Source: an uncultured bacterium
GTDB taxonomy: Bacteria; Fidelibacterota; Marinisomatia; Marinisomatales; UBA1611
Assembly: GCA_943788175.1 (NCBI GenBank)
Contig: CALSPG010000009.1
Location: 1-48,321 of the forward strand
Reading direction: 5' to 3'
DNA length: 48,321 nucleotides
Below the pieces are notes generated by a model that made no database searches, was not told where the DNA came from, and saw only the letters and a list, made by a program, of their open reading frames with translations. The translations under genes were made by a program, and so were the position numbers. Below, in pieces: positions 13,291-37,456 of the stretch. Position 1 is the first letter of the stretch. Every line of letters begins with the position of its first letter.

Positions 13291-14334
13291 GTGCGAAAAT
13301 TTTATAAAATGAACAAAAAATCACTTTCAAGCATTGTTAATTGGATATCTGGAGATATCGCGATTGATCTTGGTACTGCTAATACGCTTATCTGGTTAAA
13401 AGGAAAGGGTGTTGTAATCAATGAACCCTCAATTGTTGCTAGAACGATACATGATGATCAGATTGTAGCTGTCGGAGATGAGGCAAAAGCTATGCTTGGA
13501 AGAACACATCGAGACTTAGAAACCGTTAGGCCCTTACAAGATGGCGTTATAGCTGATTTTAAAATGACTGATGGGATGCTTCAAGGTTTTATAAACAAGA
13601 TTAATTTTAGCCGTATGGCTAGACCGCGTATGGTAATTTGTGTGCCCTCAGGTGTGACCGAGGTTGAAAGAAGAGCGGTTAAAGAATCTGGAGAGAGAGC
13701 TAATGCGAGGGAAGTCTATCTAATTGAGGAGCCTGTTGCAGCGGCCATTGGTATTGGTCTTGATATAAGCCAGCCAATAGGAAATATCATTGTTGACATA
13801 GGTGGAGGAACGACTGAAATTGCCGTTATATCTTTGAATGGCGTAGTTACTAAAGAAACAATTCGCATTGCTGGTGATGAAATGGATGAGTGTATACTGC
13901 AATGGTTTAGAAATGAGCATAAGCTTGAAATTGGTCTTGGAATGAGTGAGTCGATTAAAAAATCTGTTGGTTCAGCTATGCAAATGAACTCAACGGAAAT
14001 ATCCGTTAGGGGAAGAGATTTAGTCACAGGTATTCCCAAAACGATTGAAGTGAGTTCAGATGAAATCAGGCAAGCTCTAAAAGACCCTGTGAATGCAATA
14101 GTAGAAGCTGTCAAAAGATGTTTAGAACAAACACCTCCTGAATTAGCTGCTGATATCTTAGAGAGGGGCATCATTGTAGCTGGTGGTGGGAGTCTACTAA
14201 AGGGTATAGATCAAATAATTAGAGAAAGAACTAATGTTCCAGTCAATGTTGCTGAAGACCCATTATTATCTGTTGTTAGGGGCACAGGAATGGTCTTAGA
14301 AGACTTGAAAAAATATGAGGCGGTTCTACTCTAG
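13291..14334 (+). CDS. mreB: rod shape-determining protein MreB
   Basis: IDLGTANT, RPLQDGVIADF, TEVERRAV, DIGGGTTE, GGGSLL. Confidence 0.98.
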   Translation: MRKFYKMNKKSLSSIVNWISGDIAIDLGTANTLIWLKGKGVVINEPSIVARTIHDDQIVAVGDEAKAMLGRTHRDLETVRPLQDGVIADFKMTDGMLQGFINKINFSRMARPRMVICVPSGVTEVERRAVKESGERANAREVYLIEEPVAAAIGIGLDISQPIGNIIVDIGGGTTEIAVISLNGVVTKETIRIAGDEMDECILQWFRNEHKLEIGLGMSESIKKSVGSAMQMNSTEISVRGRDLVTGIPKTIEVSSDEIRQALKDPVNAIVEAVKRCLEQTPPELAADILERGIIVAGGGSLLKGIDQIIRERTNVPVNVAEDPLLSVVRGTGMVLEDLKKYEAVLL

Positions 14335-14343
14335 AGGTTGTTC

Positions 14344-15132
14344 ATGCGCAACCTTCTGTTATTTTTAATTAAAAACAAAGATCATTTTGTTTTTGCCGTT
14401 GCTCTTTTCTTTTCTTTTGCTCTGCTTTTTAATCGCAATAATGATGAAATGAGTGTGATTAGGGGATTCTCTTCGGACTTGGTTTCTTTTCTTTCAACGC
14501 CATTAGTAAAAGTTAAATCACTTGCTATTGTTAACGAGGAAAATCAATATCTTAGAGAAAAAAACCTTCAACTCAATCTACAGCTAGAGTCAATTTTATA
14601 TGCTGCTGATGAAAATAAAAATTTAAGAGATCTTCTAAATTTTAAAAGAGAAACAAGGCTAAAAATTATTCCAGCAAGCATTATTAATAAAGGTATTCAG
14701 ACGAATGTTAAGTCTTTGACTCTGGATGTAGGTTCTTTAAATAATATTATGCCTAATCAAGCAGTCCTTACACCCGATGGCGTAATAGGTAAAACCGTTG
14801 TAGTTGGAAAAAAGTCTTCAATAGTACAATCTATATCTGACAATAATTTTAGATTAAGTGTTCGAATTATGCCGAGTGGTGCTGTTGGAATTTTAAGATG
14901 GTCTCGAGATAATACATGCAGAGTATATGAAGTGCAAAAGAATGTTGATATAAATATAGGTGACAGGGTAATCACTTCAGGCTTCAGTAATATATATCCT
15001 GAAAAATTACCTGTTGGTATAGTCTCAGGCGTATATGATGAAAGAGGTAGTTATCAAAAAGTTGTTAATGTGAAAATTCAAAATGATTTTGAATCAATTC
15101 AAAACGTTTTTGTTGTAATTGAAAACAAATGA
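14344..15132 (+). CDS. mreC: rod shape-determining protein MreC
   Basis: N-terminal TM, coiled coil (ENQYLR, ENKNLR), GDRVITSG, position after mreB. Confidence 0.95.
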   Translation: MRNLLLFLIKNKDHFVFAVALFFSFALLFNRNNDEMSVIRGFSSDLVSFLSTPLVKVKSLAIVNEENQYLREKNLQLNLQLESILYAADENKNLRDLLNFKRETRLKIIPASIINKGIQTNVKSLTLDVGSLNNIMPNQAVLTPDGVIGKTVVVGKKSSIVQSISDNNFRLSVRIMPSGAVGILRWSRDNTCRVYEVQKNVDINIGDRVITSGFSNIYPEKLPVGIVSGVYDERGSYQKVVNVKIQNDFESIQNVFVVIENK

Positions 15133-15605
15133 TAGTCTTTCAATATTTTATTATAATATTTGTTACATTTCTCTTTCAATCGTGGACATCGGAATTTTTC
15201 TCTTTGGGTACTATCGATCCAGATTTTTGTTTAATTGTTCTGCTTTACATATCCATAAAAAATGGTGGTTTAGTGGGTACGTTATTTGGCTTTTTCATAG
15301 GTTTGTTTATTGATTTATCATCTGGTACAAATCAATTCTTTGGGTTGACGCCTCTTGTTTATACGGTCACTGGATACTCTAGCGCTTTTTTAAAAGGTCA
15401 AAATGAAAAACTTAACAAATTATATTTTAGTTCATTATGGGTTTTTATTATTCTTTGTCAATTTTTAATATTTTCTTTAGTTGTTTACCAGCAATTACTT
15501 GTAGATGAACCCACCCAGTTTTTGATAAAATGGTTGGCAACATCACTTTACACTTTGGTCTTTCTTGGTATTTTACAAATAATGGTACCTCTTTACAAAA
15601 TTTAA
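15129..15605 (+). CDS. mreD: rod shape-determining protein MreD
   Basis: Hydrophobic 158 aa, PDF..L and GFFIGLFIDL motifs, synteny. Confidence 0.9.
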   Translation: MIVFQYFIIIFVTFLFQSWTSEFFSLGTIDPDFCLIVLLYISIKNGGLVGTLFGFFIGLFIDLSSGTNQFFGLTPLVYTVTGYSSAFLKGQNEKLNKLYFSSLWVFIILCQFLIFSLVVYQQLLVDEPTQFLIKWLATSLYTLVFLGILQIMVPLYKI

Positions 15606-15612
15606 AGATAAC

Positions 15613-17376
15613 ATGCTTAAATCAGATAATTTAGTTTCAAGTAGGCAATTTTTCATTGCCAGGTCATTCGCCTGGTTTATGTTGCTATTGCTTGGTGCTA
15701 GATACTTCCAAATTCAAATCGTTGAACATGAAATTTATAGATTGAAATCAAATACGAATAGAATAAGAAAAGTAAATAAAAATGCTCCAAGGGGATTGAT
15801 TTTGGCTAGAGATGGAGAAATACTTGTTGATAATTATCCTGTTTATGTTTTGACTGCGATTCCAGGTGAAATGAAAGATAAAGGTAGTCAGTTTAAACTA
15901 ATTGCAGACTATATTGAATCTGATTCTAGTATTATTCATTCAAACTATAAAAAATATTACAGGGGTCGATTTATACCTACTCGACTTGCAAAGGATATGA
16001 ATTTTTTGCAACTTGGAAATCTAGAAGAAAATAAATTAAACCTTGAAGGTGTTTATTATGATCAAATTCCTGAGCGGTTTTTTCCCAATGGAGTTAGGGC
16101 TGCTCATTTATTTGGTTACGTAAAAGAAATTGATAGGTCGATTAGAAAAAATCTTAAAAACAAAGCTGCTTATGAACTTGGTGATTTAGTTGGTTGGTCT
16201 GGCTTAGAAAAACAATATGAAGCTTTTTTAATGGGTCAAAGAGGTACCTCTTTTTATGAGGTCAATGCATCTGGTCGCGAAGTGGGAACTGCTTCAGAAT
16301 TAGATGATACAAGACCTATTCCTGGGAGCAATATAAGAACTACAATAGATTTGCAGCTGCAATTATTTTGCGAAAACTTAATGACTGATAAAAAAGGTGT
16401 GATATTAGTTGGAGACCCTTTATCTGGTGGTGTATTAGCAGCGACTAGTGCGCCTGATTACTCGCCTGATTTCTTTACTGGATTAATAACAGAATCTAAT
16501 TGGAAGGACATGAGCACGAATCAGGATAAACCTCTTCTTAATAGATATATACAAGGTACGTACATACCTGGTTCAATAGTCAAAATGATTACCCAGGCGG
16601 CACTGCTAAAACAAGACAATTTTGATAAAAATAATAAGTATCATTGTCCAGGGTTTTATCAGTTTGGTGACAGGATTTTTGGTTGTTGGTTTACTGAGGG
16701 GCATGGCAGTCTAAATCTAGTAGAAGCAATGTCAGTGTCTTGTGATGTGTATTTTTACAAGACTGTAACTGAGCTTAGCTTAGAAAATTTGTATGATACT
16801 TTCAATCAATTTGGATTTGGTTCAAAGACAAATATAGATATACCTAACGAGGCTAGTGGTCTAGTTCCTGATAAAAGTTATATGTCAAAAAGATATGGTA
16901 AGTCTGGTTGGAGCAGGGGTGTTCTATTAAATTTGGCTATTGGTCAAGGCGAACTTTTAGTTACTCCAATTCAAGTTTTAAATTATATTAATTTATTATC
17001 TACAAAAGGTAGTTCGCCAAATAGTCATTTTGTATTTGTAGATAATTTACCTCAAAATGTAAAGCCTGAACTATCTTCTGATATATGGAGTAACATACAT
17101 AATGGCCTAAGATCTGCAATAATAAGTAGTAACGGAACTGGTAAAAAATCTGATCCAAATTTTAATGATTTTTTAGTTTTCGGGAAAACGGGTACAGCAG
17201 AAAACCCCCATGGAGATAATCATGCTTGGTTTGTAGGTTGGGCAGATTATAACGAGAAAAAGTATTCAATAGTTATTTTGTTGGAGAATGCAGGTTCTGG
17301 TGGAGCAGTTGCCGCTCCCTTGGCAAAGAAAGTTTTTGAAAAAATAATTGAAAATTCTCGATTTGCATCAAGATGA
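15613..17376 (+). CDS. mrdA: penicillin-binding protein 2
   Basis: APRGLI, PGSIVK (SxxK), SCD, KTGTAE; between mreD and rodA. Confidence 0.95.
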   Translation: MLKSDNLVSSRQFFIARSFAWFMLLLLGARYFQIQIVEHEIYRLKSNTNRIRKVNKNAPRGLILARDGEILVDNYPVYVLTAIPGEMKDKGSQFKLIADYIESDSSIIHSNYKKYYRGRFIPTRLAKDMNFLQLGNLEENKLNLEGVYYDQIPERFFPNGVRAAHLFGYVKEIDRSIRKNLKNKAAYELGDLVGWSGLEKQYEAFLMGQRGTSFYEVNASGREVGTASELDDTRPIPGSNIRTTIDLQLQLFCENLMTDKKGVILVGDPLSGGVLAATSAPDYSPDFFTGLITESNWKDMSTNQDKPLLNRYIQGTYIPGSIVKMITQAALLKQDNFDKNNKYHCPGFYQFGDRIFGCWFTEGHGSLNLVEAMSVSCDVYFYKTVTELSLENLYDTFNQFGFGSKTNIDIPNEASGLVPDKSYMSKRYGKSGWSRGVLLNLAIGQGELLVTPIQVLNYINLLSTKGSSPNSHFVFVDNLPQNVKPELSSDIWSNIHNGLRSAIISSNGTGKKSDPNFNDFLVFGKTGTAENPHGDNHAWFVGWADYNEKKYSIVILLENAGSGGAVAAPLAKKVFEKIIENSRFASR

Positions 17377-18599
17377 TTAATTTTAAAAAACTAAATATTA
17401 TTGAGACTCCATGGAAAATAATTTTTTCTGCATCTTTGTTAAGTTCTATTGGCCTTGTCGCACTTAGTAGTATTTCTTATCAAAGTCCATCTATCGTCCA
17501 AAATCCGTTTTTCAAACAATTGTTTTTCTTGATTTTTGCTTTTGCCGGTTTTTTAATTGCGTTTCTTACACCAAAATATTTAATCCATAAATATGCTTAC
17601 GTAATCTATAGTCTCGGGATAGTATTGGTAATCCTCCCATTTTTTGGTGCTACTCATGCGGGTACTTACAGGTGGCTCAATATTGGTTTGCCTTTTAATT
17701 TTCAACCAAGTGAATTTGCTAAAATATTTACTGTGATTGCGTTAGCTAGGTATTTATCTGATAATACTATAAATATTCAATATTTTAAATCCATCCTAAT
17801 TCCAATTTTAATTGCATTATTTCCATCGTTAGTTGTCTTAAATCAGCCAGATTTAGGAACTGCTCTCGTGATGATCAGTGTTATTTTCCCAATGTTATAT
17901 TGGTCTGGAGCTAGGCCCTTTTATCTTTTTTTACTAGTTGCGCCTATTTTGTCAATATTAACTGCTTTTAATGTTATCACTTTTTCAATTTGGGCTTTAA
18001 TTATTGCAGCAGTAATTTTTTATTCAAATACAAAAATTATTTCAGGTGCTGGTTATTTTTTTGGTAATGTATTTTTTGGTCTTTTGTCTCGACCCATCTG
18101 GGATATGCTCAACCCGTACCAGCAAAACAGGGTGTTGACATTTATTTATCCAGAAAAAGACCCTTTAGGTGCTGCTTATCAGATTATACAGAGCAAAACT
18201 GCTATTGGCTCTGGAGGATTATTTGGGAAAGGTTGGGGTGAGGGTACACAAACTCATTTAAAGTTTTTGCCAGTTCAAGAATCTGATTTTATCCTCTCAG
18301 TAATTGGAGAAGAATTTGGGTTTATAGCGATAGTTGTTATTTTGATTATATTTGGTTATTTGATTAGTTCCATAATTAGAAATTCTTTTTTATCAAAAGA
18401 TAAGTTTTCAAGCTTGAGTCTCATCGGCTTAGGCTCTATACTTTTGGCTCACGTCTTTGTGAATACGGCAATGACTGTTGGTTTGATCCCTGTAAAAGGC
18501 CTACCTCTTCCTTTTATTTCAGCAGGAGGGACGTTCCTTGTTACCAGTTATTTGATGATAGGGCTAATTATGAGGTTTAGTATTAATTATTCTGATTGA
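17373..18599 (+). CDS. rodA: SEDS peptidoglycan glycosyltransferase RodA
   Basis: QPSEFAK, QPDLGTA, AIGSGG, GEEFGF, GLPLPFIS. Confidence 0.95.
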   Translation: MINFKKLNIIETPWKIIFSASLLSSIGLVALSSISYQSPSIVQNPFFKQLFFLIFAFAGFLIAFLTPKYLIHKYAYVIYSLGIVLVILPFFGATHAGTYRWLNIGLPFNFQPSEFAKIFTVIALARYLSDNTINIQYFKSILIPILIALFPSLVVLNQPDLGTALVMISVIFPMLYWSGARPFYLFLLVAPILSILTAFNVITFSIWALIIAAVIFYSNTKIISGAGYFFGNVFFGLLSRPIWDMLNPYQQNRVLTFIYPEKDPLGAAYQIIQSKTAIGSGGLFGKGWGEGTQTHLKFLPVQESDFILSVIGEEFGFIAIVVILIIFGYLISSIIRNSFLSKDKFSSLSLIGLGSILLAHVFVNTAMTVGLIPVKGLPLPFISAGGTFLVTSYLMIGLIMRFSINYSD

Positions 18600-18617
18600 T
18601 GATAATATTTTAAGATA

Positions 18618-18646
18618 TTGTTGTTCTGTTTTTTATCGGGTAAATT
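18618..18646 (+). promoter_or_regulatory. possible sigma70-type promoter
   Basis: TTGTTG-N17-TAAATT upstream of ATG 18683; weak evidence in AT-rich DNA. Confidence 0.3.
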
Positions 18647-18682
18647 ATATTGAAGATTTTGTTTAATAAAATTGGTAATCAT

Positions 18683-19504
18683 ATGGTTAAATCATCCAAA
18701 ATTATATTTTTATTCGCACTTATCCTTACTAATAGTTCATTGTTATTTTCTCAAAGTTCCAAAAACTATGACAAAGAATTAAGACGGCTTAATGCTAAAA
18801 TAGACAGGGTTCGAGTATTGGTAGACTCTCTAGAATTTAATGATAGACTCCTGTTGCCAGAATTAATGTCTGCATTCAGAAAATCTGTTAGTAGTAAAGC
18901 TCAGCAAGATTCAATTACTGTTGTTATGATGAAGAGAATTAATACACTAAATAACAAAATTGCTAAGTTAGAAAATCAAGCAAAATTTATGGATAGCACA
19001 TCTCTCGAAATATATAATAAACTAGTTATGATTGAAAATAAAATTGTTACTCTTACAAACAGTTATAATGAAATGTCTCAAATGAAATCAGGATCAATTG
19101 CTGCTACTGAGCCACAGTTTAATGCGGCAAAGTACAAAAAACATTACATGAAGAGTCTTGGTTTTTTCCAAAATCAAGAATATGATAGTGCCATTAAGGG
19201 GTTTGCAGATTTGGTCAGTTCTGATGCTACAAATGATTTAGCTGATAATTGTCAATATTGGCTTGCTGAATGTTATTATTCAAAAAAAGACTTTAAAAGA
19301 GCCGTCGGAGAATTTGTGAAAGTTTTTAATTATGCGGGTACGGACAAAGATGATGATGCGCAATTAAAGCTTGGACTTGCATATCAAAGTATGGGAAGTA
19401 TTGAAAAAGCAAAGCAAGAGTTTCAAAGATTAATTGATTACTTCCCTGGCAGTGAATACTACCCAAAAGCAAAAGACGCACTGAGAAAGCTATCCCTTGA
19501 CTAA
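18683..19504 (+). CDS. CpoB/YbgF-like coiled-coil + TPR periplasmic protein
   Basis: Signal peptide from ATG 18683, coiled coil, LADNCQYWLAECYY..DAQLKLG..LIDYFPGS TPRs. Confidence 0.8.
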   Translation: MVKSSKIIFLFALILTNSSLLFSQSSKNYDKELRRLNAKIDRVRVLVDSLEFNDRLLLPELMSAFRKSVSSKAQQDSITVVMMKRINTLNNKIAKLENQAKFMDSTSLEIYNKLVMIENKIVTLTNSYNEMSQMKSGSIAATEPQFNAAKYKKHYMKSLGFFQNQEYDSAIKGFADLVSSDATNDLADNCQYWLAECYYSKKDFKRAVGEFVKVFNYAGTDKDDDAQLKLGLAYQSMGSIEKAKQEFQRLIDYFPGSEYYPKAKDALRKLSLD

Positions 19505-19523: not shown

Positions 19524-20363
19524 ATGCCAAAACCAAAAAAAATATACTTTAGCACTACAGAAATTGTTCCATTTGCAAATGTGTCAAATTTTGCAAGTTT
19601 TTCAACTGTTGTTCCGGCAATGCTTCAAGAATTAGGTCATGACATTAGAACTATTATTCCCAAGTATGGTTTTATTAGTGAACGTAAATATATTCTTAGA
19701 GAGGTTATCAGATTAAGAGAAATTCCTTTTAACTTTCGCGGAGAAGAAGAATCTGCAAGCGCTAAGAGTGCATTTATTCCTAAGACTAGAGTTCAAGTTT
19801 ATTTTCTTGAGAGCGAAAAATGGTTTCAGCCTTTGACAAATTTATTGTATAAATCTAAAAACGGTAGAATCTTAATGGATAATGTTGAGAGATATGCATA
19901 TTTTTCTAAAGCTGTAATCAGTACTCTTCCTCATCTTTTTTGGGTTCCAGACATTTTTGTTTGTAATGGTTGGCAATCAGCTCTAATCCCCAATTATTAC
20001 AAGAATGAATACGAAGGTATAAGCGATTTTTACAAGAAAATTAAAACAGTTTTAGTCGTTCATGATCAAGATGAATACTCGCTAGTGGATAGGGCAGAAC
20101 TTGTTAAAATGGGAATTGAGATTGATCCTAAGATTAAAGGTTCGAAATTAAATATATATGATGTTGCCAGTTATAGCGCCGATGCTATTTTAGTAATGAA
20201 TAGGCCGGGGGAAAAGATATCTACAAATTTGCTTAAAAGATCTGCTTTTAAAGACAACAAGGACAAGATTACAGTTTTTGATCAAGAAGATGCAGAGGAT
20301 ATAGATTTTAATGCAATGACAGAGTCTTTAGAGGAAGTCATATTTGATGCTACATCTAAGTAA
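19524..20363 (+). CDS. glycogen/starch synthase N-terminal-domain-only protein (GT5-like)
   Basis: EIVPF, GHDIRTIIPKYG, DNVERYAYF, PDIFVCNGWQSAL; only 279 aa; KTGGL motif absent. Confidence 0.85.
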   Translation: MPKPKKIYFSTTEIVPFANVSNFASFSTVVPAMLQELGHDIRTIIPKYGFISERKYILREVIRLREIPFNFRGEEESASAKSAFIPKTRVQVYFLESEKWFQPLTNLLYKSKNGRILMDNVERYAYFSKAVISTLPHLFWVPDIFVCNGWQSALIPNYYKNEYEGISDFYKKIKTVLVVHDQDEYSLVDRAELVKMGIEIDPKIKGSKLNIYDVASYSADAILVMNRPGEKISTNLLKRSAFKDNKDKITVFDQEDAEDIDFNAMTESLEEVIFDATSK

Positions 20364-20519: not shown

Positions 20520-21740
20520 ATGAAATTTACCAGTCTATTATCCACAATAGGTTTATGTGGCCTTTTACTTTTTTTTGCAAATTGCTCTGAAGAGCCAATT
20601 CAATCTGATCTTTCCAATATTAGCCAATCTATTGATACTCTATTAATCACTAGCAGTGATATAACAGCTTTTAATTACCAAGTTTCTCCAGATATTGGTG
20701 GCTACAATAAATTATATGTCGGCAACCAAGATGGTTTCAACTTTACTAGCTCGCTTTTAAAATTTTCTACAATTGGATGGAATACTTTTATTGATTCAAC
20801 TGTGACTGTGGATAGTTTATTCTTTAAAGTTTTTGCTGGAGATAGTTCTCTTACAATTGATAACAACTTAAAATTATATTTTTCAAATGATTCAATATTT
20901 GATGAAAATAATAGTTCTTTAGCTGATTTATCTAACATTGATTTTTCTTCATGGAGTAATTTAGGCTCACCTGCAATTGACGTTATAATTGATACTTCTG
21001 ATACTGTTAGTCAATTTCAAGAGACTTCTCTGTCATGGAATCTGAGTAGCATATCTGAGTCTTTAATTGATACGACCAAATTATATCGTACCTTTGCTTT
21101 GTCTTATGGTGCAGACGAATCATTTATTGAGCTATTTAGTAGAGAATACAGCTCTGGAAGCCTAGATCCTAAGATAGAGGTTTATTATAGAAGTGAGGTT
21201 GATCTTAGCTCAGATTCTACTATTATTGACACTCTCACTAGACTTGTATACGTTTCCGAAGATTTGTCTATCCTTAAAGATGTGGAGAATGCTATTAATG
21301 TTGATAATTCTATATTTATAAGTCGAGCTAGGGGATATCGGTCAGTTTTTAATATTCCTTTTGACTCTCTTTCATTACCACCATACTCTGTAATTCGTTA
21401 CGCAAACTTATCTTTATATCAGAAAGAAAATACTAATGATACTTTAAAATCTTTTTCTGTAAGAATGGAACCGCTTAAAGTGGAAATTGATACATCTTCT
21501 CAGGTTTTTGAATTAGATCCGTATGATTATCTAGGGCAGCATTATTCCTCTGCGACAACAGCAAGTGGAAAGCTTGAAATTTCTTTAAAATCATATTTTC
21601 AATCTATTTTAATGACAGATTCTATTAAAAACGTTGGTTTTAAACTTTATTCAAATATGAGCAATGATTTATTTGATAGTTTGTCTTTTGATTTAGATAA
21701 TGTAAATAACCGCTTAGAGATTTTTTATGTTGCTCCTTAA
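20520..21740 (+). CDS. acidic lipoprotein, DUF4270-like
   Basis: Lipobox FANC followed by SEE; two beta-rich halves ending PKIEVYY and RLEIFY; follows the half-GlgA gene as DUF4270 genes do in Bacteroidota. Confidence 0.65.
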   Translation: MKFTSLLSTIGLCGLLLFFANCSEEPIQSDLSNISQSIDTLLITSSDITAFNYQVSPDIGGYNKLYVGNQDGFNFTSSLLKFSTIGWNTFIDSTVTVDSLFFKVFAGDSSLTIDNNLKLYFSNDSIFDENNSSLADLSNIDFSSWSNLGSPAIDVIIDTSDTVSQFQETSLSWNLSSISESLIDTTKLYRTFALSYGADESFIELFSREYSSGSLDPKIEVYYRSEVDLSSDSTIIDTLTRLVYVSEDLSILKDVENAINVDNSIFISRARGYRSVFNIPFDSLSLPPYSVIRYANLSLYQKENTNDTLKSFSVRMEPLKVEIDTSSQVFELDPYDYLGQHYSSATTASGKLEISLKSYFQSILMTDSIKNVGFKLYSNMSNDLFDSLSFDLDNVNNRLEIFYVAP

Positions 21741-23040
21741 TAAATTGCTCAAGATATTATTTTTTGTCTCAATGTGTTTTTCTCAAGGGCCATCTAATGG
21801 TTATGGAATAGGTAGTCTTCAACAATGGTCCTCCGCCTCTGCTGGTGGGAGCAGTTCTCTTGGAATGACGCCCTCTTACAGAAATCATGTCTCTTTATCA
21901 AATCCAACGACATGGTCAAATTTAAAGTTTACTTCTTTGTCTATAGCTTACAATGGATTTGAGTCGACAATAAAAAATAACTCTATAAACGGCTATTCAA
22001 ACTTGCAATCTGCGCAACTTATCATCCCTATAAAGCGAAAGCATGCTTTAGGTATTGAGCTTCATCCATATTCTTACCAAAAGGTCAATTTGCTTGACTC
22101 ATTAAACTCTGAATCAATCGTTTTTGGAGACACAGTTTCCATGGCGAAAGAATATAAACAAGCTGGAGGTATAATGGCCTTTAACTTATCTGTAGCTTCA
22201 TCAATACTTCCTAAGACGAGTATAGGTGTTACGTTTCAACTTCTTTTTGGTTCTTCTAGGCAGAGTAATAATTTAAATATTGATGAAATTCCATATACAT
22301 TATCTTCTAGGTTAAATTTTTCGGGGATTAATGCTCTGTTGTTTGCAGAACATAAAATTAATGAATTGAGTTTATATTTTAAATCCAAGGTTTCTATTAA
22401 ACCTCTAGAAGCTTTAAGTACTAAGCTTTATCCATATTTTGATGCAAATAAAAATGGGTATCATGATCTTGTTTACGATTATCTAAATCCGGGGTATGAT
22501 TTCCCTGAACCCAATGATGTTCCTAATCCATTAACGAAGAGGCTAACTGATATTCATAGGCCATTTTCTTTGGGCATAGGAGTATCAAAAATATTTCTAG
22601 ATAGGTTACAATTATCCTTAGAGTTTGAAAAAAATGAAGATAATTCTTCTTTTGAAAATGAAATGCCTAACAGTTTTAATAACAGAATAGTTAATAGTAA
22701 CCATATTTCTTTGGGTGTAGTCTGGTTTTCAAATGAAAAATCATTTCAATTATTTGACAATTTTACTTTTCGTTCTGGTTTTTCTGTTAATGCTTACACT
22801 CTTGATGAGTTTAATAATGCTTCACTCCTTAGAATAGACGGCCAAAATAATATTTCTGAGATTGGTTTCTCTTTTGGTTTTGGATATAAATTTAAAACAG
22901 TGGGAAATCAGATAGATTTTACTTATCATTCTAGTCTAAGGGATCATTCGAATATTTTTATTGGTGAAGAACTTTTTAGAGGATTTCAAGTAGGAATAAG
23001 TATTGCTGATATATGGTTTATAAAAAGGAGACAAAGGTAG
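21727..23040 (+). CDS. FadL-like outer-membrane beta-barrel
   Basis: YGIG..A..LG..NP N-terminal hatch, PYS motif, amphipathic strands, FRSG, basic C-terminus IADIWFIKRRQR. Confidence 0.75.
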   Translation: MLLLNKLLKILFFVSMCFSQGPSNGYGIGSLQQWSSASAGGSSSLGMTPSYRNHVSLSNPTTWSNLKFTSLSIAYNGFESTIKNNSINGYSNLQSAQLIIPIKRKHALGIELHPYSYQKVNLLDSLNSESIVFGDTVSMAKEYKQAGGIMAFNLSVASSILPKTSIGVTFQLLFGSSRQSNNLNIDEIPYTLSSRLNFSGINALLFAEHKINELSLYFKSKVSIKPLEALSTKLYPYFDANKNGYHDLVYDYLNPGYDFPEPNDVPNPLTKRLTDIHRPFSLGIGVSKIFLDRLQLSLEFEKNEDNSSFENEMPNSFNNRIVNSNHISLGVVWFSNEKSFQLFDNFTFRSGFSVNAYTLDEFNNASLLRIDGQNNISEIGFSFGFGYKFKTVGNQIDFTYHSSLRDHSNIFIGEELFRGFQVGISIADIWFIKRRQR

Positions 23041-23041
23041 T

Positions 23042-24328
23042 ATGCAATTATTGACAAATCGAGTTTTATTTATAGGCCTCTTTTTATTTGTTTTTTCAAT
23101 GTGTGTTCCTCCAAAGGATGGTTCAGATATGGATTTTGCAAAAGAAAAAGCTAGGTTAGATTCTCTAAGAGACGTCAGGTGCCCTCGCTTAATGAGTAGC
23201 GCTGCTGAATATTATCGCAATCGTGACTGGAAGCAAACCATTAGAATCTACAGTGAAATTACAGATTTAAGTTGTGACGAATGGAATGCTGTTTATGCTC
23301 CACCTGAAGAAATATATCAGTATTATTCATTTGCTTACACACAAATTGGCCGATTTGATAGTGCAGAATATGTTTTAGTAGATGGTCTACAAAAAATCCC
23401 GCAAAATGTTCAATTAAGAAAGCAACTAGCATACGCATACAAAAGGCAAGGTAAGGTAGATAAAGAAATTATTGAATATGAGCGTTTGGTAGATATTGCG
23501 CCGAATGATATTAGTATTCTAAATGACCTAGCAAAAATTTATAAAGATCAAGGTAACTACGATAATCAGATAATAGTACTCAGAAAGATACTTAGAGTCG
23601 ATGATACAAATGATGTTGCTCAAAGTGAGCTTGCCATTGCTTATGAAAATAGTGGAAAAAATCCATTAGAAGTATATGAAAAACGTTATTCAGACAATCC
23701 TGACAATATAAGTTATGGCCTTGATTATTCTGATAGACTCATAAAGGCTGACAGAGCAGACGAAGCTATGGATATTCTTAAAAGAATTATTTCAAAAGAA
23801 CCAACTAGTAAGCTCGCATATCAGAAATTAGGAAAAGTATCTTGGGAGTCCGATGAATTAGAGAATGCAGCATCTGCTTATGAATCATTATTTAAAATTG
23901 ATCCTAGAGATGGTCGAGTTGCTATAACCATTTCAGATATTTACATTGATATTGAAAATTATGGAAAGGCTCTCCGTTGGGCTGATAAATCTATTAATTT
24001 AATTGATAATAGTGGAAATGGATTTGGTCAAAAAGGTAAAGTGTTCTACAAAGCCTGGGAGTCACTTAAAAACAACCCCTTAACTGTCGATGATAGAATT
24101 GTAGCAAAACTTGCTTATGATAATTTTACCAAAGCTAACGAAATGAATTACAGAGGCTTTAATCGATTGAAGTATCTAAAAGACAATGCGAAAGATTTGT
24201 TATACGGAAAAGCTCAATGGTTTATGGCTGAAGATAAAGTAAAAAGATCGGGCGTAATTCGGACTACTACAGCTAGCTACGATTGGGTAACAGATAATCT
24301 TTCTCCAGAAAAAAATTGGAAAAAATAA
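23042..24328 (+). CDS. TPR repeat protein, probable lipoprotein
   Basis: Signal ending FSMC; many TPR-like helical repeats. Confidence 0.82.
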   Translation: MQLLTNRVLFIGLFLFVFSMCVPPKDGSDMDFAKEKARLDSLRDVRCPRLMSSAAEYYRNRDWKQTIRIYSEITDLSCDEWNAVYAPPEEIYQYYSFAYTQIGRFDSAEYVLVDGLQKIPQNVQLRKQLAYAYKRQGKVDKEIIEYERLVDIAPNDISILNDLAKIYKDQGNYDNQIIVLRKILRVDDTNDVAQSELAIAYENSGKNPLEVYEKRYSDNPDNISYGLDYSDRLIKADRADEAMDILKRIISKEPTSKLAYQKLGKVSWESDELENAASAYESLFKIDPRDGRVAITISDIYIDIENYGKALRWADKSINLIDNSGNGFGQKGKVFYKAWESLKNNPLTVDDRIVAKLAYDNFTKANEMNYRGFNRLKYLKDNAKDLLYGKAQWFMAEDKVKRSGVIRTTTASYDWVTDNLSPEKNWKK

Positions 24329-29379: not shown

Positions 29380-29482
29380 CACTGTCCAATAATCAGGAGT
29401 ACTATTATTAAATAAACGCTATTTTTATCCTCATAAAATGAGGTCACATAATATTAAATTTACATTATCTAGGAGACTTCCA

Positions 29483-30835
29483 ATGAAGCGTTTTATCACT
29501 GTACTATTTGTACTTCAAATTTTTATTAATATTTTACCAGCTCAGAGCGAAGCTGGAGCAATTTTTCTTTTAATTGCGCCTGGTGCTAGAGCTGGCGGAA
29601 TGGGTGAAGCGCAGGTCGCCGTTGCTGATGATGCCTATGCTAGTTATTGGAATCCTGCAGGGCTTGGGTTTTTAAAAGGATCTGAAACAGCATTAATGCA
29701 CGTTAACTGGCTTCCTGGGTTAGCAGATGATATGTATTATGAGTTTTTAGGCTTTAGAAAGCATTATGATAAACTTGGTACTCTTGGTGGACATGTTATT
29801 TTTTTAAATTTAGGGGAGCAAGTTAGAACGAGTGAAATAGGCGAAGAATTAGGTACTTTTACTAGTTATATGACTGCTTTTTCACTTTCATATGGAGCTT
29901 TAATATCTGAAAAAAAATCATTCGGTATTAATGCAAAAATTTCTTATCAACATCTTGTGGAGATAGGGGCAGGAAGTGAAAAAGGAAAAGGAACTTCGCT
30001 AGACTTTGGTTTTGACTTTGGCTATTTACACAAGGACTGGTTAATCGATGATTTAACTTTTGGTTTTAACTTGTCAAATATTGGACCAAAAGTATCTTTT
30101 ATCGATCCCGACCAAGCTGATCCTCAGCCTACCAATCTAACCTTAGGGTTTAACTATGGTCTCGTTAAATCTGAATTTAACAAATTAAATATTGTCTATG
30201 ATGTTGACAAACTTCTCGTTGCTTCTTATCCTGATATGGATTGGGATGATAACGGGTATATAGGTGGATATGATGAGGATGGTAATCAGAGCCCTGGGAA
30301 TGATTACAATAAAGAAGGGCAAATAGAAATTGCTCATACAGATCCAATTTACTTAGCATTGTTTACTTCTTGGGTTGATGATTGGTTCCTCGGTGGGGAT
30401 ATTGATAAAGCAGTTTCAGGAGAATATGGTGATAAAGTAATTGGTGGTTGGAATTGGGATGAGTCAATGGATGTAAATGGTAATAATGAGCCGGACGCAA
30501 ATGAGATGGTGCAAACCGGTAATATAAACCCAGGTGATGATGGTTGGGGTACATATAATGAATGGGGCCAGAAAGAAGTTGGTAATAGTGATGATCGAAG
30601 TTTATCGGATGAGTTAGATAAATTGGTCCATAATTTTGGATTAGAATACTGGTATGGCGAATATTTTGCTATAAGAACTGGTTATTACTATGATAAAACT
30701 GGAAAAATTAGTAACCCTACTTTTGGAATTGGCCTTCGATTTGCTGGTTACGGTTTTGATTTTGGATACACTTACGGAGAACCAGGACACCCATTAACGA
30801 ATACTATGAGATTTTCACTTAATATGGAATATTAG
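29483..30835 (+). CDS. PorV/PorQ-family outer-membrane barrel with acidic insertion
   Basis: FLLIAPGARAGGMGEA..YWNPAGL, NIGPK, FAIRTGY, LTNTMRFSL; start ATG 29483 with AGGAG. Confidence 0.88.
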   Translation: MKRFITVLFVLQIFINILPAQSEAGAIFLLIAPGARAGGMGEAQVAVADDAYASYWNPAGLGFLKGSETALMHVNWLPGLADDMYYEFLGFRKHYDKLGTLGGHVIFLNLGEQVRTSEIGEELGTFTSYMTAFSLSYGALISEKKSFGINAKISYQHLVEIGAGSEKGKGTSLDFGFDFGYLHKDWLIDDLTFGFNLSNIGPKVSFIDPDQADPQPTNLTLGFNYGLVKSEFNKLNIVYDVDKLLVASYPDMDWDDNGYIGGYDEDGNQSPGNDYNKEGQIEIAHTDPIYLALFTSWVDDWFLGGDIDKAVSGEYGDKVIGGWNWDESMDVNGNNEPDANEMVQTGNINPGDDGWGTYNEWGQKEVGNSDDRSLSDELDKLVHNFGLEYWYGEYFAIRTGYYYDKTGKISNPTFGIGLRFAGYGFDFGYTYGEPGHPLTNTMRFSLNMEY

Positions 30836-33627: not shown

Positions 33628-36575
33628 TATTCATTCTATCTGTTATTTTTGCTTTTCAAGCTACTTTGAATGGCCAAGCGAAGTATAACCATCCAGAGCT
33701 AAATTGGTATACTTTTGAAACCGAAAATTTTAAAATACATTATCACGAAGAGACTGAGATTTCTGCAAGAGAGGCGGCTACTGTTGCTGAGGTGGTTTTC
33801 CCTAAAATAACTTCATTTTATGACTTTTCCCCTGAAAGTAAAACAGATATAATATTAAAAGATACTGATGACTACTCCAATGGAGCGGCTTATTACTATG
33901 ATAATAAAATTGTTATTTGGGCGACTCCTTTAAACTTTGAGTTAAGAGGTAGTCATAGGTGGTTACAGAATGTCATTACCCATGAATTTGCTCATATTGT
34001 CTCACTGCAAAAATCAATGAAAATGGGTAATAAAATTCCCGGGGCTTATTTACAGTTTATGGGGTTTGAAAAAGAAAAAAGAAAAGATGTTTTGTACGGT
34101 TTCCCAAATAGGCTGGTGAGTTACCCTATTCCAGCAACAGTTGTTCCCCCTTGGCTAGCTGAGGGGTCTGCGCAGTATATGTATGATGGTGCTGATTGGG
34201 ATCATTGGGACACTCACAGGGATATGATTTTGAGAGATAGAGCGCTTAACGATAAACTACTTTCATTTAATGAAATGAATACGTTTGGTAAAAAAGGTAT
34301 TGGTAATGAATCAACTTATAATTCTGGGTTCGCTCTTTCTAGATATATAGCTTATAAATACGGTTCAAATGTTATTAAAGATGTGATGCAAGAACTGTCA
34401 AACCCTTTACAGTATTCAATAAATGATGCCTTTTATAATGTTATAGATGTTGATGGGGAAGTCATTTATAATGACTTCATCTTGACACTTAAAGAAAGAT
34501 ATGAAAAACTTTCAAGTCCCATTGACGTAAATAAGACAACACCAAATATTATTGCAGGTAAAGGTACAACAAATATGTTTCCGGTATGGGCTCCCGACAC
34601 TAATGTTTTTGCATATCTAAGCAATAAGGGAAATGACTTTTTTGGGCAAACAGATCTATATATTTTAAATTTAGATGATAATAATGAAAAAAAGATTTCG
34701 GGATCTGTTTACTCTGCTCCAACATGGCATCCAGATGGATTGCATATTTATTATAGTAAAAAGCCTATGTTCCCAGATAAAAATGGGTCTAGATACTATG
34801 ATATTTATGAATACAATCTATCTTCAGAAAAAGAAAAAAGACTTACGAATGGTGCAAGGTCTATTTCTCCCGTCTTTATTAAATCTGATAGTAGTATTGC
34901 ATTTATTGCAACAAAAGATGGAGCGCAGGATATTTATATTTACGATTTGAAGAATAAAGAAATAATTCAGATTACTGATTTTAATAATAGGCCCATTATT
35001 AGTAGTCTGAATTTTAACAAATATGACAATAGTCTCTATTTCGATATATCAACACATCATTACAGGGATATAGGAAAAATTTCGTTGAATGATACAACGT
35101 TTAATATGGTGCTTAGTAATGATTTATGGGATGAGCGTAATATCACTTTTAGTAATAATGGTTCTGTTATATATGCTGATGATAAAAGTGGGATTTTTAA
35201 TCTTTATCTAATCGATGAGAAAAATAAAAAACAAGGTTATGTGACAAACGTTCTTGGTGGTGCCTTTATGCCAAGTATGAACCAAAATGGAAGGTTAATA
35301 TACTCGCTATATCACGATGGTGCGTATAAAATTGCATTGATCGATACACTGGCAATAATTGAGGATGATTTAGTTGGCTATGCAAACAACTATTATCAAA
35401 AAAATGCAAACCTAACTGCTCCTATTACTAAGCTTGATACATCAGAGGCTCACAAGTATGTAGATCAATTTCCAAACATGTTTTTAATGCCAAAATTAAT
35501 GTATGAATATGGTACCGCTAAGCCAGGGTTTTATTTTTATTCAAGTGAGATTTTAGAGAGGTTAAGTTTATTTGGAGGTATGTCACTAAATAGTCGAATG
35601 GATGCAGACTTGTTCTTCATTTTTGAGTTTAATCGGTTTTACCCAACAGTCTTCTTTGAAACGTTTTACCTCACACGAAATACTTCAGATCGGACTAGAT
35701 ATCAAGACATTTATGAAATAGATAGTGATATTAAATTTAGAATGCTCCTTTTTCGCCCTGGAATAAAATTTCCTTTATATGGTAGCACTATCGAAATATT
35801 TAGTTCGTTTCAACGATACAGAGCATTTGTTAAAGAATCACTGCCTATGGAGAATATCGAAGCAGGAGTAGCCTACGATTACTACAAGGGGATTTCATTG
35901 AATTTCGATTGGAAATTAAATGTAATTAAACCTCGACTTGACGGAAGTATAAATCCGTCAAATGGCTTTATTTTAGCTGCAAAACTAGATTTTGAAAAAA
36001 ATAATTTTATTGATGGTCTTGATTTGTCAGATGCTGGCACATTGGTTGAAGATTTTAAAAATAATGATTTAACTCGTGTTCAGGGTGAATTAACCTATCA
36101 TTATGAAATACCTTGGGTCGAGAGATTAACAACGAGTCTGCACTTGAGTGGTGGATATATGTCAAATGCAAAAGTTGATTCATTCTTTCATTTTTTTAAT
36201 GGCGGTATGAGCGGTCTTAAAGGTTATCCTTTTTATGGTATTGAAGGAACAAAATCTGCTTTGATTGATTTAACTGTAAGGCTTCCCATTTTTCGTGAAG
36301 AGCATATAAAATTAGGTTGGTTTATTATGCAGAATAGTGTCTTGGGAGCAGTTTTTCAAATCGGTGATGCTTGGAGAGAAAAAAATGATCAAATGTGGAA
36401 AAAATCTATTGGTCTTCAATGGCGTATTAATGGTTTCTCATTTTATAATTATCCAACAGCAATTGAATTAGAAATTCATAGAGGCTTAACTAAATTTGAA
36501 AGAGTAATAAAAGGAGATTCATACTCTTATGGTAAAGAAAACAGAACATATTTTAAATTATTATTTGATTTTTAA
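33624..36575 (+). CDS. zinc peptidase (MA-like) + PD40/TolB-like propeller + Omp85-like beta-barrel
   Basis: THEFAH and WLAEGSAQY; PVWAPD and PTWHPDG repeats; PSNG, GG..GLKGY; C-terminal F. Confidence 0.8.
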   Translation: MIFILSVIFAFQATLNGQAKYNHPELNWYTFETENFKIHYHEETEISAREAATVAEVVFPKITSFYDFSPESKTDIILKDTDDYSNGAAYYYDNKIVIWATPLNFELRGSHRWLQNVITHEFAHIVSLQKSMKMGNKIPGAYLQFMGFEKEKRKDVLYGFPNRLVSYPIPATVVPPWLAEGSAQYMYDGADWDHWDTHRDMILRDRALNDKLLSFNEMNTFGKKGIGNESTYNSGFALSRYIAYKYGSNVIKDVMQELSNPLQYSINDAFYNVIDVDGEVIYNDFILTLKERYEKLSSPIDVNKTTPNIIAGKGTTNMFPVWAPDTNVFAYLSNKGNDFFGQTDLYILNLDDNNEKKISGSVYSAPTWHPDGLHIYYSKKPMFPDKNGSRYYDIYEYNLSSEKEKRLTNGARSISPVFIKSDSSIAFIATKDGAQDIYIYDLKNKEIIQITDFNNRPIISSLNFNKYDNSLYFDISTHHYRDIGKISLNDTTFNMVLSNDLWDERNITFSNNGSVIYADDKSGIFNLYLIDEKNKKQGYVTNVLGGAFMPSMNQNGRLIYSLYHDGAYKIALIDTLAIIEDDLVGYANNYYQKNANLTAPITKLDTSEAHKYVDQFPNMFLMPKLMYEYGTAKPGFYFYSSEILERLSLFGGMSLNSRMDADLFFIFEFNRFYPTVFFETFYLTRNTSDRTRYQDIYEIDSDIKFRMLLFRPGIKFPLYGSTIEIFSSFQRYRAFVKESLPMENIEAGVAYDYYKGISLNFDWKLNVIKPRLDGSINPSNGFILAAKLDFEKNNFIDGLDLSDAGTLVEDFKNNDLTRVQGELTYHYEIPWVERLTTSLHLSGGYMSNAKVDSFFHFFNGGMSGLKGYPFYGIEGTKSALIDLTVRLPIFREEHIKLGWFIMQNSVLGAVFQIGDAWREKNDQMWKKSIGLQWRINGFSFYNYPTAIELEIHRGLTKFERVIKGDSYSYGKENRTYFKLLFDF

Positions 36576-37455
36576 ATTAGCGTTATTGACAGTTTTAATA
36601 ATGCCTATCGCTGGGCAAGATACTTCGAAAGTAATTGTTAAAAACGATTCTACTTTTTATCCAGGTAAGCCACTAATAATGTCCTTATTGATACCAGGAT
36701 TAGGCCAGGTTTATAATAAGGAACCGCTCTGGAAACCAAGTCTTTTTATAGCGACTGAAATAGTCAGTATTACAAGCATATTTTACGCAAACAAAAAAGC
36801 AGATGAAATTAGACTTGATTACCAAAAGTTTGCGGATGAGAATTGGAATATTCAAAATTGGTGGAACTTTACTCAATCAGGACCTACAACAGTTGAAAAC
36901 AACGGACTATATTTTACGGATAATAAATTAAAGGCAATGAGAGATTATGTAGGTACACATCATCTAACTGTTCACCTAAAGGGTGATCTCGTCAACTTAT
37001 TTAATACGGAATTTTTAACATCAGATAGTCTTTCCCTCTTGTCTAGTTATCTTGATAGCGATGATGTTACAATGGTTAAAGATAGGCACTATTACGAAAA
37101 TATTGGCAAGTATGATCAGTTCGTTGGAGGTTGGTCTGATGTCGCTACTGATTGGTATTGGGAAGAAAAAGATGTTGGTGATAGTACTGAGATCGTTATT
37201 AAAACACCTAATAAACAAAGTTATCTTGATGAGCGTTATAAATCAAATCAATGGTTATCTTTTGCTAAATTTAGTGTGAGCGCAATGATGTTTAATCATG
37301 TAATAAGCGGGTTAGAAGCTGTCTACGCTAACAGAATTAATAAAAACAATAAAACTCGAAAGGATTCTAAGGATATTAACCTTGATTTAGGCTTGTTATT
37401 TAATCCAAGTAACAAGACTGGTATAGGTGGTTTGTCCTTTAGACTTAATTTTTAA
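36529..37455 (+). CDS. DUF5683-like membrane protein
   Basis: SLLIPGLGQVYN, YYENIGKYDQFVGGW, NHVISGLEA, terminal strand LSFRLNF; start uncertain (36529 or 36565). Confidence 0.65.
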   Translation: MVKKTEHILNYYLIFKLALLTVLIMPIAGQDTSKVIVKNDSTFYPGKPLIMSLLIPGLGQVYNKEPLWKPSLFIATEIVSITSIFYANKKADEIRLDYQKFADENWNIQNWWNFTQSGPTTVENNGLYFTDNKLKAMRDYVGTHHLTVHLKGDLVNLFNTEFLTSDSLSLLSSYLDSDDVTMVKDRHYYENIGKYDQFVGGWSDVATDWYWEEKDVGDSTEIVIKTPNKQSYLDERYKSNQWLSFAKFSVSAMMFNHVISGLEAVYANRINKNNKTRKDSKDINLDLGLLFNPSNKTGIGGLSFRLNF

Positions 37456-37456
37456 A

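Follow-up and report, generated by a model that had tools for sequence, protein, structure and literature searches.

Candidate BamG and BamH orthologues and an adjoining TPR protein gene in Marinimicrobia (SAR406/Fidelibacterota)

Gene content and conservation of the locus

The stretch of DNA analysed here (the window; 48,321 nucleotides) comes from an uncultured member of the Marinimicrobia and carries three closely packed genes, encoding a lipoprotein, an outer-membrane barrel and a tetratricopeptide repeat (TPR) protein (Table 1). The ORFs of the lipoprotein and the barrel share 14 nt (21727–21740) and those of the barrel and the TPR protein lie 1 base apart, as a preliminary description of the sequence had reported. 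All three are on the forward strand, and glyA starts at 24329, 0 nt past the stop codon of the TPR gene. The same description placed bamD 13 kb away, and a TIGR03302 match is indeed found 13.1 kb downstream of the end of the TPR gene (24328). Each of the three proteins has more than 100 relatives and their gene order is kept phylum-wide, and hence the ORFs are real genes rather than products of chance.

Table 1. Genes of the locus and related envelope genes in the window.
Feature	Coordinates	Strand	Details
CpoB/YbgF-like coiled-coil and TPR protein	18650-19504	+	TIGR02795 at 71.2 bits (cut-off 90.1)
Truncated glycogen-synthase-like (glgA-like) gene	19524-20363	+	279 aa; PF08323 only, residues 6-219
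BamH-like surface lipoprotein gene	20520-21740	+	406 aa ORF
BamG-like FadL-family outer-membrane barrel gene	21727-23040	+	437 aa ORF
TPR protein gene, probable lipoprotein	23042-24328	+	428 aa ORF
PorV-family gene	29438-30835		242 bits
bamD, core BAM lipoprotein	37427-38188	+	TIGR03302 94.6 bits, cut-off 81.4

The three genes are part of a longer conserved run consisting of rodA, the cpoB-like gene, the glgA-like gene, bamH, bamG, the TPR gene and glyA, with bamH and bamG standing here for the lipoprotein and barrel genes. The order lipoprotein, barrel, TPR was found in 27–29 of 30 loci in one set and in 80/80 loci in the other, and the TPR gene lies directly 3′ of bamG in 29/30 and 80/80 loci of these sets, respectively. 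The scan of genome contigs covered the best 80 of 169 matches, none of which was attributed to another phylum. A glgA-like gene precedes bamH in 69 of the 80 loci, and in 10 of the other 11 its position is off the contig or the gene was undetected; the truncated protein that it encodes holds only the N-terminal half of a GT5 enzyme.

Among 121 genomes of the phylum, 119 carry BamG-like genes, and these include genomes of 0.9–1.1 Mb. A profile of the lipoprotein finds its gene in 55/121 genomes. This figure is not used as its distribution, since rapid evolution puts the protein beyond the reach of a single profile; in 27/30 loci a right-sized ORF stands upstream of bamG. The TPR gene is single-copy in 118/121 genomes, among them all 82 of high quality and the genomes of 0.9–1.1 Mb.

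Near-identical contigs in the RNA libraries of two studies bridge the bamG–TPR and TPR–glyA junctions in 4/4 runs, with DNA carry-over a possible source. Among the pieces listed, the junction between the glgA-like gene and bamH is bridged in one RNA-library run only and the bamH–bamG junction by no RNA-library contig. As evidence for expression of the trio, these contigs are weak. A scan for sigma-70 promoters (39 sites; 38.0 expected from shuffled sequence) and terminators (4 sites; 3.5 expected) was uninformative.

The barrel and the lipoprotein compared with BamG and BamH

The extended BAM complex of the Bacteroidota was first described in 2025, and includes BamG, a FadL-family barrel, and BamH, a DUF4270 surface lipoprotein (Bt4306) (PMC12611786; PMC12578637). 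The preliminary description had correctly named such a pair as extra subunits. Structures have been solved for the complexes of F. johnsoniae (9n2d), B. thetaiotaomicron (9hiv/9his) and P. gingivalis (9hjm) (PMC12611786; PMC12578637).

The only NCBIfam match of the barrel is BamG (NF053685; E 9.4e-34, 117.1 bits), with barrel residues 26–435 aligned to positions 12–397 of the 397 in the model, i.e. its full length. The score is lower than the curated equivalog cut-off of 250 bits, which is passed in only 1/121 genomes of the phylum. The barrel is therefore called here a diverged BamG orthologue and not an NF053685 equivalog. All 32 of the barrel relatives searched match BamG, and three of them also match PorV_fam, more weakly. 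A Pfam search of the barrel returned nothing at E<=1, the FadL and PorV models of Pfam and NCBIfam gave no match at the same threshold, and a phmmer search against the PDB found nothing credible. The top two PDB matches of the barrel profile are both chains of BAM complexes: 9hiv_F, whose name is just ‘Outer membrane protein’, and 9n2d_B, which is listed as ‘Bam G’. A Y-G-x-G motif just past the signal peptide and a W-F-x-K-R-R tail at the C-terminus align with both chains and are kept across the barrel alignment; at the level of primary structure, the barrel has the features that distinguish BamG from FadL transporters.

The lipoprotein begins with a hydrophobic leader followed by Cys22-S-E-E-P-I-Q, with Cys22 kept in at least 90% of 57 diverse relatives, which bears out the acidic residues after the cysteine that were seen in the preliminary description. 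The two acidic residues within six positions of Cys22 correspond to the signal for surface export given in a figure legend of the BAM preprint (at least two acidic residues within six after the Cys), and the protein is thus a predicted surface lipoprotein.

A template-free AlphaFold model of the lipoprotein (pLDDT 90.3, pTM 0.82) folds into a pair of beta-sandwich domains, of which one is CBM96/DNRLRE-like, and replaces an earlier model built on a shallow alignment of 14 sequences, which was discarded (pLDDT 37.2). Its top three Foldseek matches in the PDB are 9n2d_C (E 1.5e-13), 9hjm_G (1e-8) and 9his_G (1.9e-8), which are the BamH chains from the three Bacteroidota complexes of known structure, with TM 0.52–0.53; for the match ranked fourth, E is 2.5e-4 and TM 0.13. 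Of the three chains, only 9hjm_G is named in the annotations retrieved, as a DUF4270 protein. VIA-align gave Z scores of 18.2, 18.0 and 15.9 against the BamH chains, over 359, 338 and 354 residues, and its next match, over one domain, is a chondroitin-sulfate carbohydrate-binding module (CBM) (8wab, Z 13.1), in agreement with the published description of BamH (PMC12611786). The predicted fold is that of BamH, with two elongated beta-sandwich domains, one of which resembles the chondroitin-sulfate CBM. With TM of ~0.5 and rmsd of 6–13 Å, the model has domains arranged or sized differently from those of BamH, and the protein is ~110 residues shorter than the BamH chains of F. johnsoniae and B. 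thetaiotaomicron.

Searches with sequence families gave a different picture. The likeness to DUF4270 put forward in the preliminary description stands by fold, with BamH chains at the top of the Foldseek matches, and fails by Pfam. PF14092 (DUF4270) is matched at E<=1 by 0/57 members of the lipoprotein family and by nothing in the genome (92% complete), while the protein encoded upstream of a canonical BamG in another locus, used as a positive control, scored 101.8 bits. The lipoprotein matches no Pfam family at E<=1 and DNRLRE_dom is matched by 40/57 of its relatives. Aligned by hhalign to a DUF4270 alignment, the family gave a probability of 93% (E 3.4e-7) over 368 columns, collinear end to end, falling to 55% (E 1.2e-4) over 318 columns without the signal peptides; against one DUF4270 sequence there was no match. 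A phmmer search of the PDB produced nothing credible. Designer propellers, the sole PDB matches of the lipoprotein profile, were rejected as spurious, sharing only a short G-x-x-Y-x-G-S-like stretch.

The rest of the machine is also represented in the genome. Its BamA (442.6 bits) has the BamAs of Bacteroidota as best PDB relatives, at E 1.9e-87 versus ~1e-33 for E. coli, and together with BamD this resembles the Bacteroidota BAM. There is one good BamG match only, and the barrel and lipoprotein are the sole BamG/BamH candidate pair. The pair that had been proposed as the side-by-side equivalent of BamG and BamH is supported, in that the barrel matches the BamG model only and the lipoprotein model matches BamH chains far above all else. 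We consider it very probable that the Marinimicrobia have their BamH orthologue in the 406-aa lipoprotein and their BamG orthologue in the 437-aa barrel, both being extra core subunits of an FCB-type BAM. The putative BamG shares with its Bacteroidota counterparts the FadL-family barrel, the extension motif kept at the N-terminus and the basic tail at the C-terminus, and the modelled BamH shares with theirs the two-domain fold with its chondroitin-sulfate-CBM-like domain. In contrast to the Bacteroidota, the sequences are far diverged (BamG at 117 versus 250 bits, no PF14092) and a TPR gene follows the pair. The adjacency of bamG and bamH also differs from the primary pair of F. johnsoniae, whose locus tags are distant (Fjoh_1412, Fjoh_0823). 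It is shared with the representatives of six other FCB phyla in Suppl. Table 1 of Liu et al. (Ignavibacterium, Salinibacter, Gracilimonas, Fibrobacter, Gemmatimonas and Caldithrix), in all of which the two locus tags are adjacent, with one main pair per genome as here.

Two other readings of the pair have to be weighed. The genes may form a BAM-independent cassette of barrel and surface lipoprotein that acts alone at the cell surface, like the unexpressed two-gene operon BamG2–BamH2 of Bacteroides and Flavobacterium (Bt1785–Bt1786; Fjoh_1686–Fjoh_1685) or other FadL/PorV-like cassettes. BamG2 and BamH2 are likewise encoded by adjacent genes, BamH2 reportedly falls short of BamH by ~100 residues, as the 406-aa lipoprotein is short (PMC12578637), and the scores here lie under curated family cut-offs. 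However, BamG2–BamH2 are described as dispensable second copies, undetected in proteomes (PMC12578637), whereas the present pair is the only one in its genome and is near-universal in the phylum, being kept in 119/121 genomes down to those of ~1 Mb. Adjacency is also a property of the assigned BamG/BamH of the six other FCB phyla (Liu et al., Suppl. Table 1) and, in genome G085, which has a second, canonical DUF4270 and BamG pair beside the phylum-type pair, the TPR gene accompanies the phylum-type pair only. A separate cassette is therefore improbable. [quoted passage not shown] BamG belongs to the FadL family, and FadL and PorV proteins share its barrel superfamily (PMC12611786); three of the 32 barrel relatives have weak PorV_fam matches; and the genome carries a T9SS, with the PorV-family gene of Table 1 and SprA. 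Yet the barrel itself finds neither a FadL nor a PorV model, the T9SS gene in the same window is a separate and much better PorV-family match, the N-terminal motif of the barrel aligns with the extension of BamG that blocks the FadL transport path, and the partner lipoprotein has the predicted fold of BamH.

The TPR protein downstream of bamG

The TPR protein matches 27 TPR-type Pfam families and no other type of Pfam family, and its profile likewise found nothing but generic TPR matches in the PDB and Pfam. The family alignment shows an invariant Cys21 with Pro-Pro after it, conservation of Cys47 and Cys78, and a conserved non-TPR segment past the repeats at the C-terminus. These sequence features indicate that it is probably a lipoprotein and, since it has no acidic export signal, one that probably faces the periplasm. 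Like BamD (YfiO) and further TPR lipoproteins found in envelope machines, it has a leader and a conserved Cys ahead of its TPR repeats, but it differs from BamD in its own conserved N- and C-terminal segments, which belong to no known family. The protein was rejected as a candidate BamD, as TIGR03302 is absent from its 21 NCBIfam matches and the real bamD lies elsewhere in the window. A literature search found no paper on BamG and BamH together with a tetratricopeptide protein, and a TPR partner of bamG is not described in the papers searched. An Atlas cluster of mostly Ignavibacteriota members (rank 11, score 0.94) offers only a lead to the TPR family elsewhere.

The role of this protein can be read in two ways. 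It is somewhat likelier than an even chance that its job is unrelated to BAM, e.g. that of a general periplasmic scaffold, and that its place after bamG belongs to a frozen run of envelope and housekeeping genes. The run from rodA to glyA is conserved whole, often on to a TRAP-transporter gene, so the linkage is not specific to bamG; the matching families are just generic; and, the family of BamD aside, the terms TPR and tetratricopeptide have no occurrences in either of the two BAM papers (PMC12611786; PMC12578637). Against this, the gene is tightly spaced between bamG and glyA, is single-copy nearly throughout the phylum (118/121 genomes, 82/82 of high quality) and is retained in the smallest genomes. 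More tentatively, and as the less likely reading, the probable TPR lipoprotein may be a further periplasmic BAM subunit or a dedicated assembly factor. It would then dock on the periplasmic face of BamG, of BamD or of the POTRA domains, and its origin would predate the split of several FCB phyla outside the Bacteroidota. [quoted passage not shown]

Proposed arrangement and biological meaning

The arrangement that we propose for the barrel and lipoprotein is inferred from the solved Bacteroidota complexes. By analogy, BamG would sit against the back of the BamA barrel, with its extended N-terminus plugging the lateral opening used by FadL transporters and the tail at its C-terminus reaching BamD. 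BamH would be flipped onto the surface of the cell, with its lipid anchor and N-terminal tail wedged in between BamG and BamA. The pair of beta-sandwich domains of BamH would arch as a canopy over BamA, above the site where new outer-membrane proteins fold. The third gene of the trio would add a TPR protein that is single-copy throughout the phylum, probably lipid-anchored and probably facing the periplasm.

Among uncultured bacterial groups, Marinimicrobia/SAR406 are one of those most abundant in the dark ocean. BamG and BamH beyond the Bacteroidota have already been published for six FCB phyla, inferred from one representative each, and the Marinimicrobia were not sampled there, with neither Marinimicrobia nor Fidelibacterota among the species of Suppl. 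Table 1 (Liu et al.). A literature search found no paper on BamG in either Marinimicrobia or Fidelibacterota. On the very probable assignment of the pair as BamG and BamH, the BamADGH set extends to this further phylum. As its putative BamH has diverged past the reach of the Pfam DUF4270 model, annotation pipelines leave both genes hypothetical. BamG is near-universal in the phylum, as is SprA (119/121 genomes each), while SusD is found in 15/121, and hence the need for BamG/BamH cannot rest on SusCD here. The probable TPR lipoprotein, encoded next to bamG in the loci examined, is a concrete candidate for an additional component.

Probable BamG and BamH in an unsurveyed phylum

The lipoprotein and the barrel are in all likelihood BamH and BamG of a phylum absent from published surveys; their sequences have diverged so far that Pfam DUF4270 misses the one and the other falls short of the curated score for BamG. 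The BAM complex of F. johnsoniae comprises BamA, BamD, BamG and BamH, with BamM and BamP as accessory subunits; in BamG, a FadL-family barrel of 14 strands, the extended N-tail is threaded through a lateral opening and the last residues contact BamD, and BamH is a surface lipoprotein with a BamG-proximal domain of chondroitin-sulfate-binding CBM fold (Liu et al., PMC12611786). The same core is shared by B. thetaiotaomicron and P. gingivalis (Silale et al., PMC12578637), where a dispensable, operon-encoded BamG2-BamH2 pair is also described, and Bt4306, later named BamH, is a DUF4270 protein (preprint of Silale et al.). The FadL-like barrel and DUF4270 lipoprotein that the preliminary description gave as extra BAM subunits of Bacteroidota are described in these papers. 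BamG and BamH are kept in six of seven other FCB phyla, and the single phylum without them also lacks SusCD and SprA (Liu et al., PMC12611786). Supplementary Table 1 of that paper, in the part available to us, takes one species per phylum (Gracilimonas, Ignavibacterium, Salinibacter, Chlorobaculum, Fibrobacter, Gemmatimonas, Caldithrix), with no bamG or bamH found in Chlorobaculum, adjacent bamG and bamH locus tags in 6/6 gene-bearing non-Bacteroidota FCB species, and Marinimicrobia absent from its species.

Features of the locus and its surroundings
Feature	Position	Strand	Basis or remark
mreB, mreC, mreD, pbp2, rodA	13291-18599		upstream of the trio
Glycogen-synthase-like protein, 279 aa	19524-20363		PF08323 at residues 6-219, N-terminal GT5 domain (half) only
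Lipoprotein, 406 aa	20520-21740	+	ORF; hydrophobic leader, then Cys22-Ser-Glu-Glu-Pro
Barrel, 437 aa	21727-23040	+	ORF; NCBIfam BamG match
TPR protein, 428 aa	23042-24328	+	ORF; 27 TPR-type Pfam families matched
BamD	37427-38188		TIGR03302, 94.6 bits (cut-off 81.4); 13.1 kb downstream of the trio

The barrel had no match in Pfam, and the single NCBIfam family it matched was BamG (NF053685; E 9.4e-34), at 117.1 bits where the curated cut-off demands 250. This match is full-length (residues 26-435, model positions 12-397 of 397) and supports the earlier proposal of an extra BAM subunit. BamG was likewise matched by 32/32 members of a phylum-wide barrel alignment, only three of which also matched PorV_fam, and by 119 of the 121 sampled genomes of the phylum (above cut-off in one); in the window genome this gene is the sole good match, another elsewhere scoring 24.9 bits. 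The two best PDB matches of a close-relative barrel profile come from BAM complexes: 9hiv_F, which is labelled just 'Outer membrane protein', and 9n2d_B, labelled 'Bam G' (E 0.002-0.003). In profile alignments, two motifs of the barrel, Y-G-x-G directly behind the signal peptide and W-F-x-K-R-R at the C-terminus, face the same Bacteroidota motifs; a 14-stranded fold with its N-terminus threaded is our inference for this barrel. Barrels of the window's own order also carry an insertion of ~45 residues (residues ~219-268, window ~22381-22530), missing from other families of the phylum, which holds a D-x-N-x-N-G-x-x-D motif that resembles a calcium-binding loop.

Sequence searches by themselves give the lipoprotein no known family, but its predicted structure does. 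Pfam at E<=1 returned no match for the lipoprotein or any of 56 diverse relatives, PF14092 had no match anywhere in the window genome (92% complete), and sequence searches of the PDB found no match. A weak DNRLRE-domain match (27.7 bits against a cut-off of 34) is common to 40 of 57 relatives. AlphaFold reached a pLDDT of 37.2 with 14 close sequences, and of 90.3 (pTM 0.82) with 57 diverse sequences, template-free. The three top Foldseek matches of this model in the PDB (TM 0.52-0.53) were 9n2d_C of F. johnsoniae BAM (E 1.5e-13), 9hjm_G of P. gingivalis BAM (1e-8) and 9his_G of B. thetaiotaomicron BamHIJK (1.9e-8), the fourth falling to E 2.5e-4 and TM 0.13. With VIA-align the same chains gave Z 18.2, 18.0 and 15.9 over 359, 338 and 354 residues, followed by the chondroitin-sulfate CBM 8wab (Z 13.1, 163 residues). 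Chain 9hjm_G is named a DUF4270 protein; 9n2d_C and 9his_G are BamH judging by entry titles and chain lengths rather than by chain name. Of the earlier suggestion that this lipoprotein is the equivalent of the DUF4270 subunit, the structural side stood, the top three Foldseek matches being BAM-complex chains, and the Pfam side, a DUF4270 match, did not. Profile comparison (hhalign) of the lipoprotein family with an alignment around the DUF4270 protein of another genome of the phylum (G085) gave a probability of 93% (E 3.4e-7, 368 columns), or 55% (E 1.2e-4, 318 columns) without signal peptides.

An exhaustive lipoprotein profile search recovered 132 cluster representatives at E<=0.001, with lengths of 357-423 aa for those that are complete. 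Across the phylum the lipoprotein profile found its gene in only 55 of the 121 genomes, which shows that the surface protein diverges fast. In four class-level relatives (G030:C29, G039:C12, G051:C6, G103:C17) the BamH-like match falls in two parts, one at each end of an open frame of 733-982 aa, pointing to BamH variants that are far longer because of a large insertion. The acidic residues noted earlier after the lipoprotein's Cys are present, behind a hydrophobic leader. The usual residue before a lipid-anchor Cys is Gly, Ala or Ser; in the alignments of the lipoprotein and TPR families it is often Asn, Met, Arg, Gln or His (presumed lipid-anchor Cys at window 20583-20585 and 23102-23104). 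This may point to an atypical lipobox in the phylum or to a different role for the Cys.

BamA, SprA and expression of the locus

The window genome encodes an 802-aa BamA (442.6-443.7 bits; context uppS, bamA, skp, lpxD), whose nearest PDB chains are Bacteroidota BamA (E 1.9e-87 to 3.8e-62), with E. coli BamA behind at ~1e-33. It has a SprA match of 586.9 bits, while SusD is not matched at all and SusC only below cut-off or not at all; across the phylum SusD occurs in 15/121 genomes, and SprA, like BamG, in 119/121. In this phylum the link of BamG/BamH with SusCD is broken and that with SprA holds; this is no statistical test, because two nearly universal genes co-occur trivially. The SprA match (G000:C7:328244-334275, in the window's own genome) is split in four pieces, one with an internal TGA; this very long gene may be frameshifted or misassembled.

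In metatranscriptome libraries from two studies, near-identical contigs span bamG to the TPR gene and the TPR gene to glyA in 4/4 runs each, and the glgA-like gene to bamH in 1/4; the bamH-bamG junction is spanned by none among the pieces listed. These contigs are only compatible with expression, because contigs do not demonstrate one continuous transcript and may stem from DNA carry-over.

Gene order across the phylum

The window, contig 9, belongs to a genome of 2.27 Mb assembled into 12 contigs. The three co-directional ORFs overlap by 14 nt (lipoprotein and barrel) or lie one base apart (barrel and TPR), and glyA starts at 24329, directly after the TPR-gene stop codon; ORFs, Pfam TPR matches and TIGR03302 agree with the arrangement first described, bamD 13 kb away included. 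Between rodA and bamH lie a CpoB/YbgF-like gene and then the glycogen-synthase-like gene; downstream of glyA come genes for a TRAP transporter, a PorV-family protein and a T9SS-dependent protein, and then bamD, whose start is overlapped by 29 nt by a 308-aa ORF (36529-37455) with no NCBIfam family.

Among 30 loci picked by BamG match, a 395-447-aa ORF precedes bamG in 27, the other three being cut by contig ends, and a ~425-aa protein with a conserved Cys-(Val/Gln/Leu)-Pro-Pro start follows it in 29. Among 80 loci picked by TPR match (the best 80 of 169), bamG is directly upstream of the TPR gene in 80/80, and the full order rodA, cpoB-like, glgA-like, bamH, bamG, TPR, glyA is found in 58; the remaining 22 are mostly contig-end cuts, a few having no detectable cpoB-like or bamH match. 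Named records among these 80 are all Marinimicrobia, Neomarinimicrobiota or Fidelibacterota, names that the title of PMC11652737 gives to a single phylum, and a close barrel homologue is labelled a Candidatus Marinimicrobia protein by its source.

The one locus of the 30 with no such protein after bamG is a canonical pair in G085 (L003, G085:C29:133691-137836), in which a true DUF4270 protein (101.8 bits) lies upstream of a BamG that passes the curated cut-off at 314.7 bits, with no TPR gene. The phylum-type trio is present on another contig of G085; the canonical pair could have been acquired or be a paralogue of the BamG2/BamH2 kind.

Rod-system genes and the CpoB/YbgF-like gene (window 13291-19504) stand directly 5' of the run from glgA-like to TPR, and rodA and the cpoB-like gene hold the same position in most of the best 80 of 169 loci. 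The glgA-like gene lies 5' of bamH in 69 of those 80. What we take to be the K-x-G-G-L site of GT5 synthases reads N-V-S-N-F in its product, and the GlgA fragment kept upstream of bamH is seemingly dead.

The TPR protein downstream of bamG

The TPR family occurs in 118/121 genomes of the phylum and in 82/82 of those of high quality, with one match per genome in nearly every case, and genomes of 0.9-1.1 Mb retain it too. In its alignment Cys21 never varies and has Pro-Pro after it, and Cys47 and Cys78 vary little or not at all; behind the TPR repeats the C-terminus is conserved as well, in a stretch matching no family. Surface export is marked by at least two acidic residues among the six that follow the lipid-anchor Cys (preprint of Silale et al., PMC12578637); the TPR protein has one after Cys21 and so carries no such signal, and on this reading of its sequence it probably stays on the periplasmic side. 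That it might be BamD was rejected, a separate BamD gene (TIGR03302) being present at 37427-38188.

The words TPR and tetratricopeptide do not occur in the available text of either BAM paper (PMC12611786, PMC12578637), and a literature search returned no paper joining BamG, BamH and tetratricopeptide. BamG and BamH themselves are already known; of the three, only the TPR protein, a probable lipoprotein and the constant downstream neighbour of bamG, has not been published.
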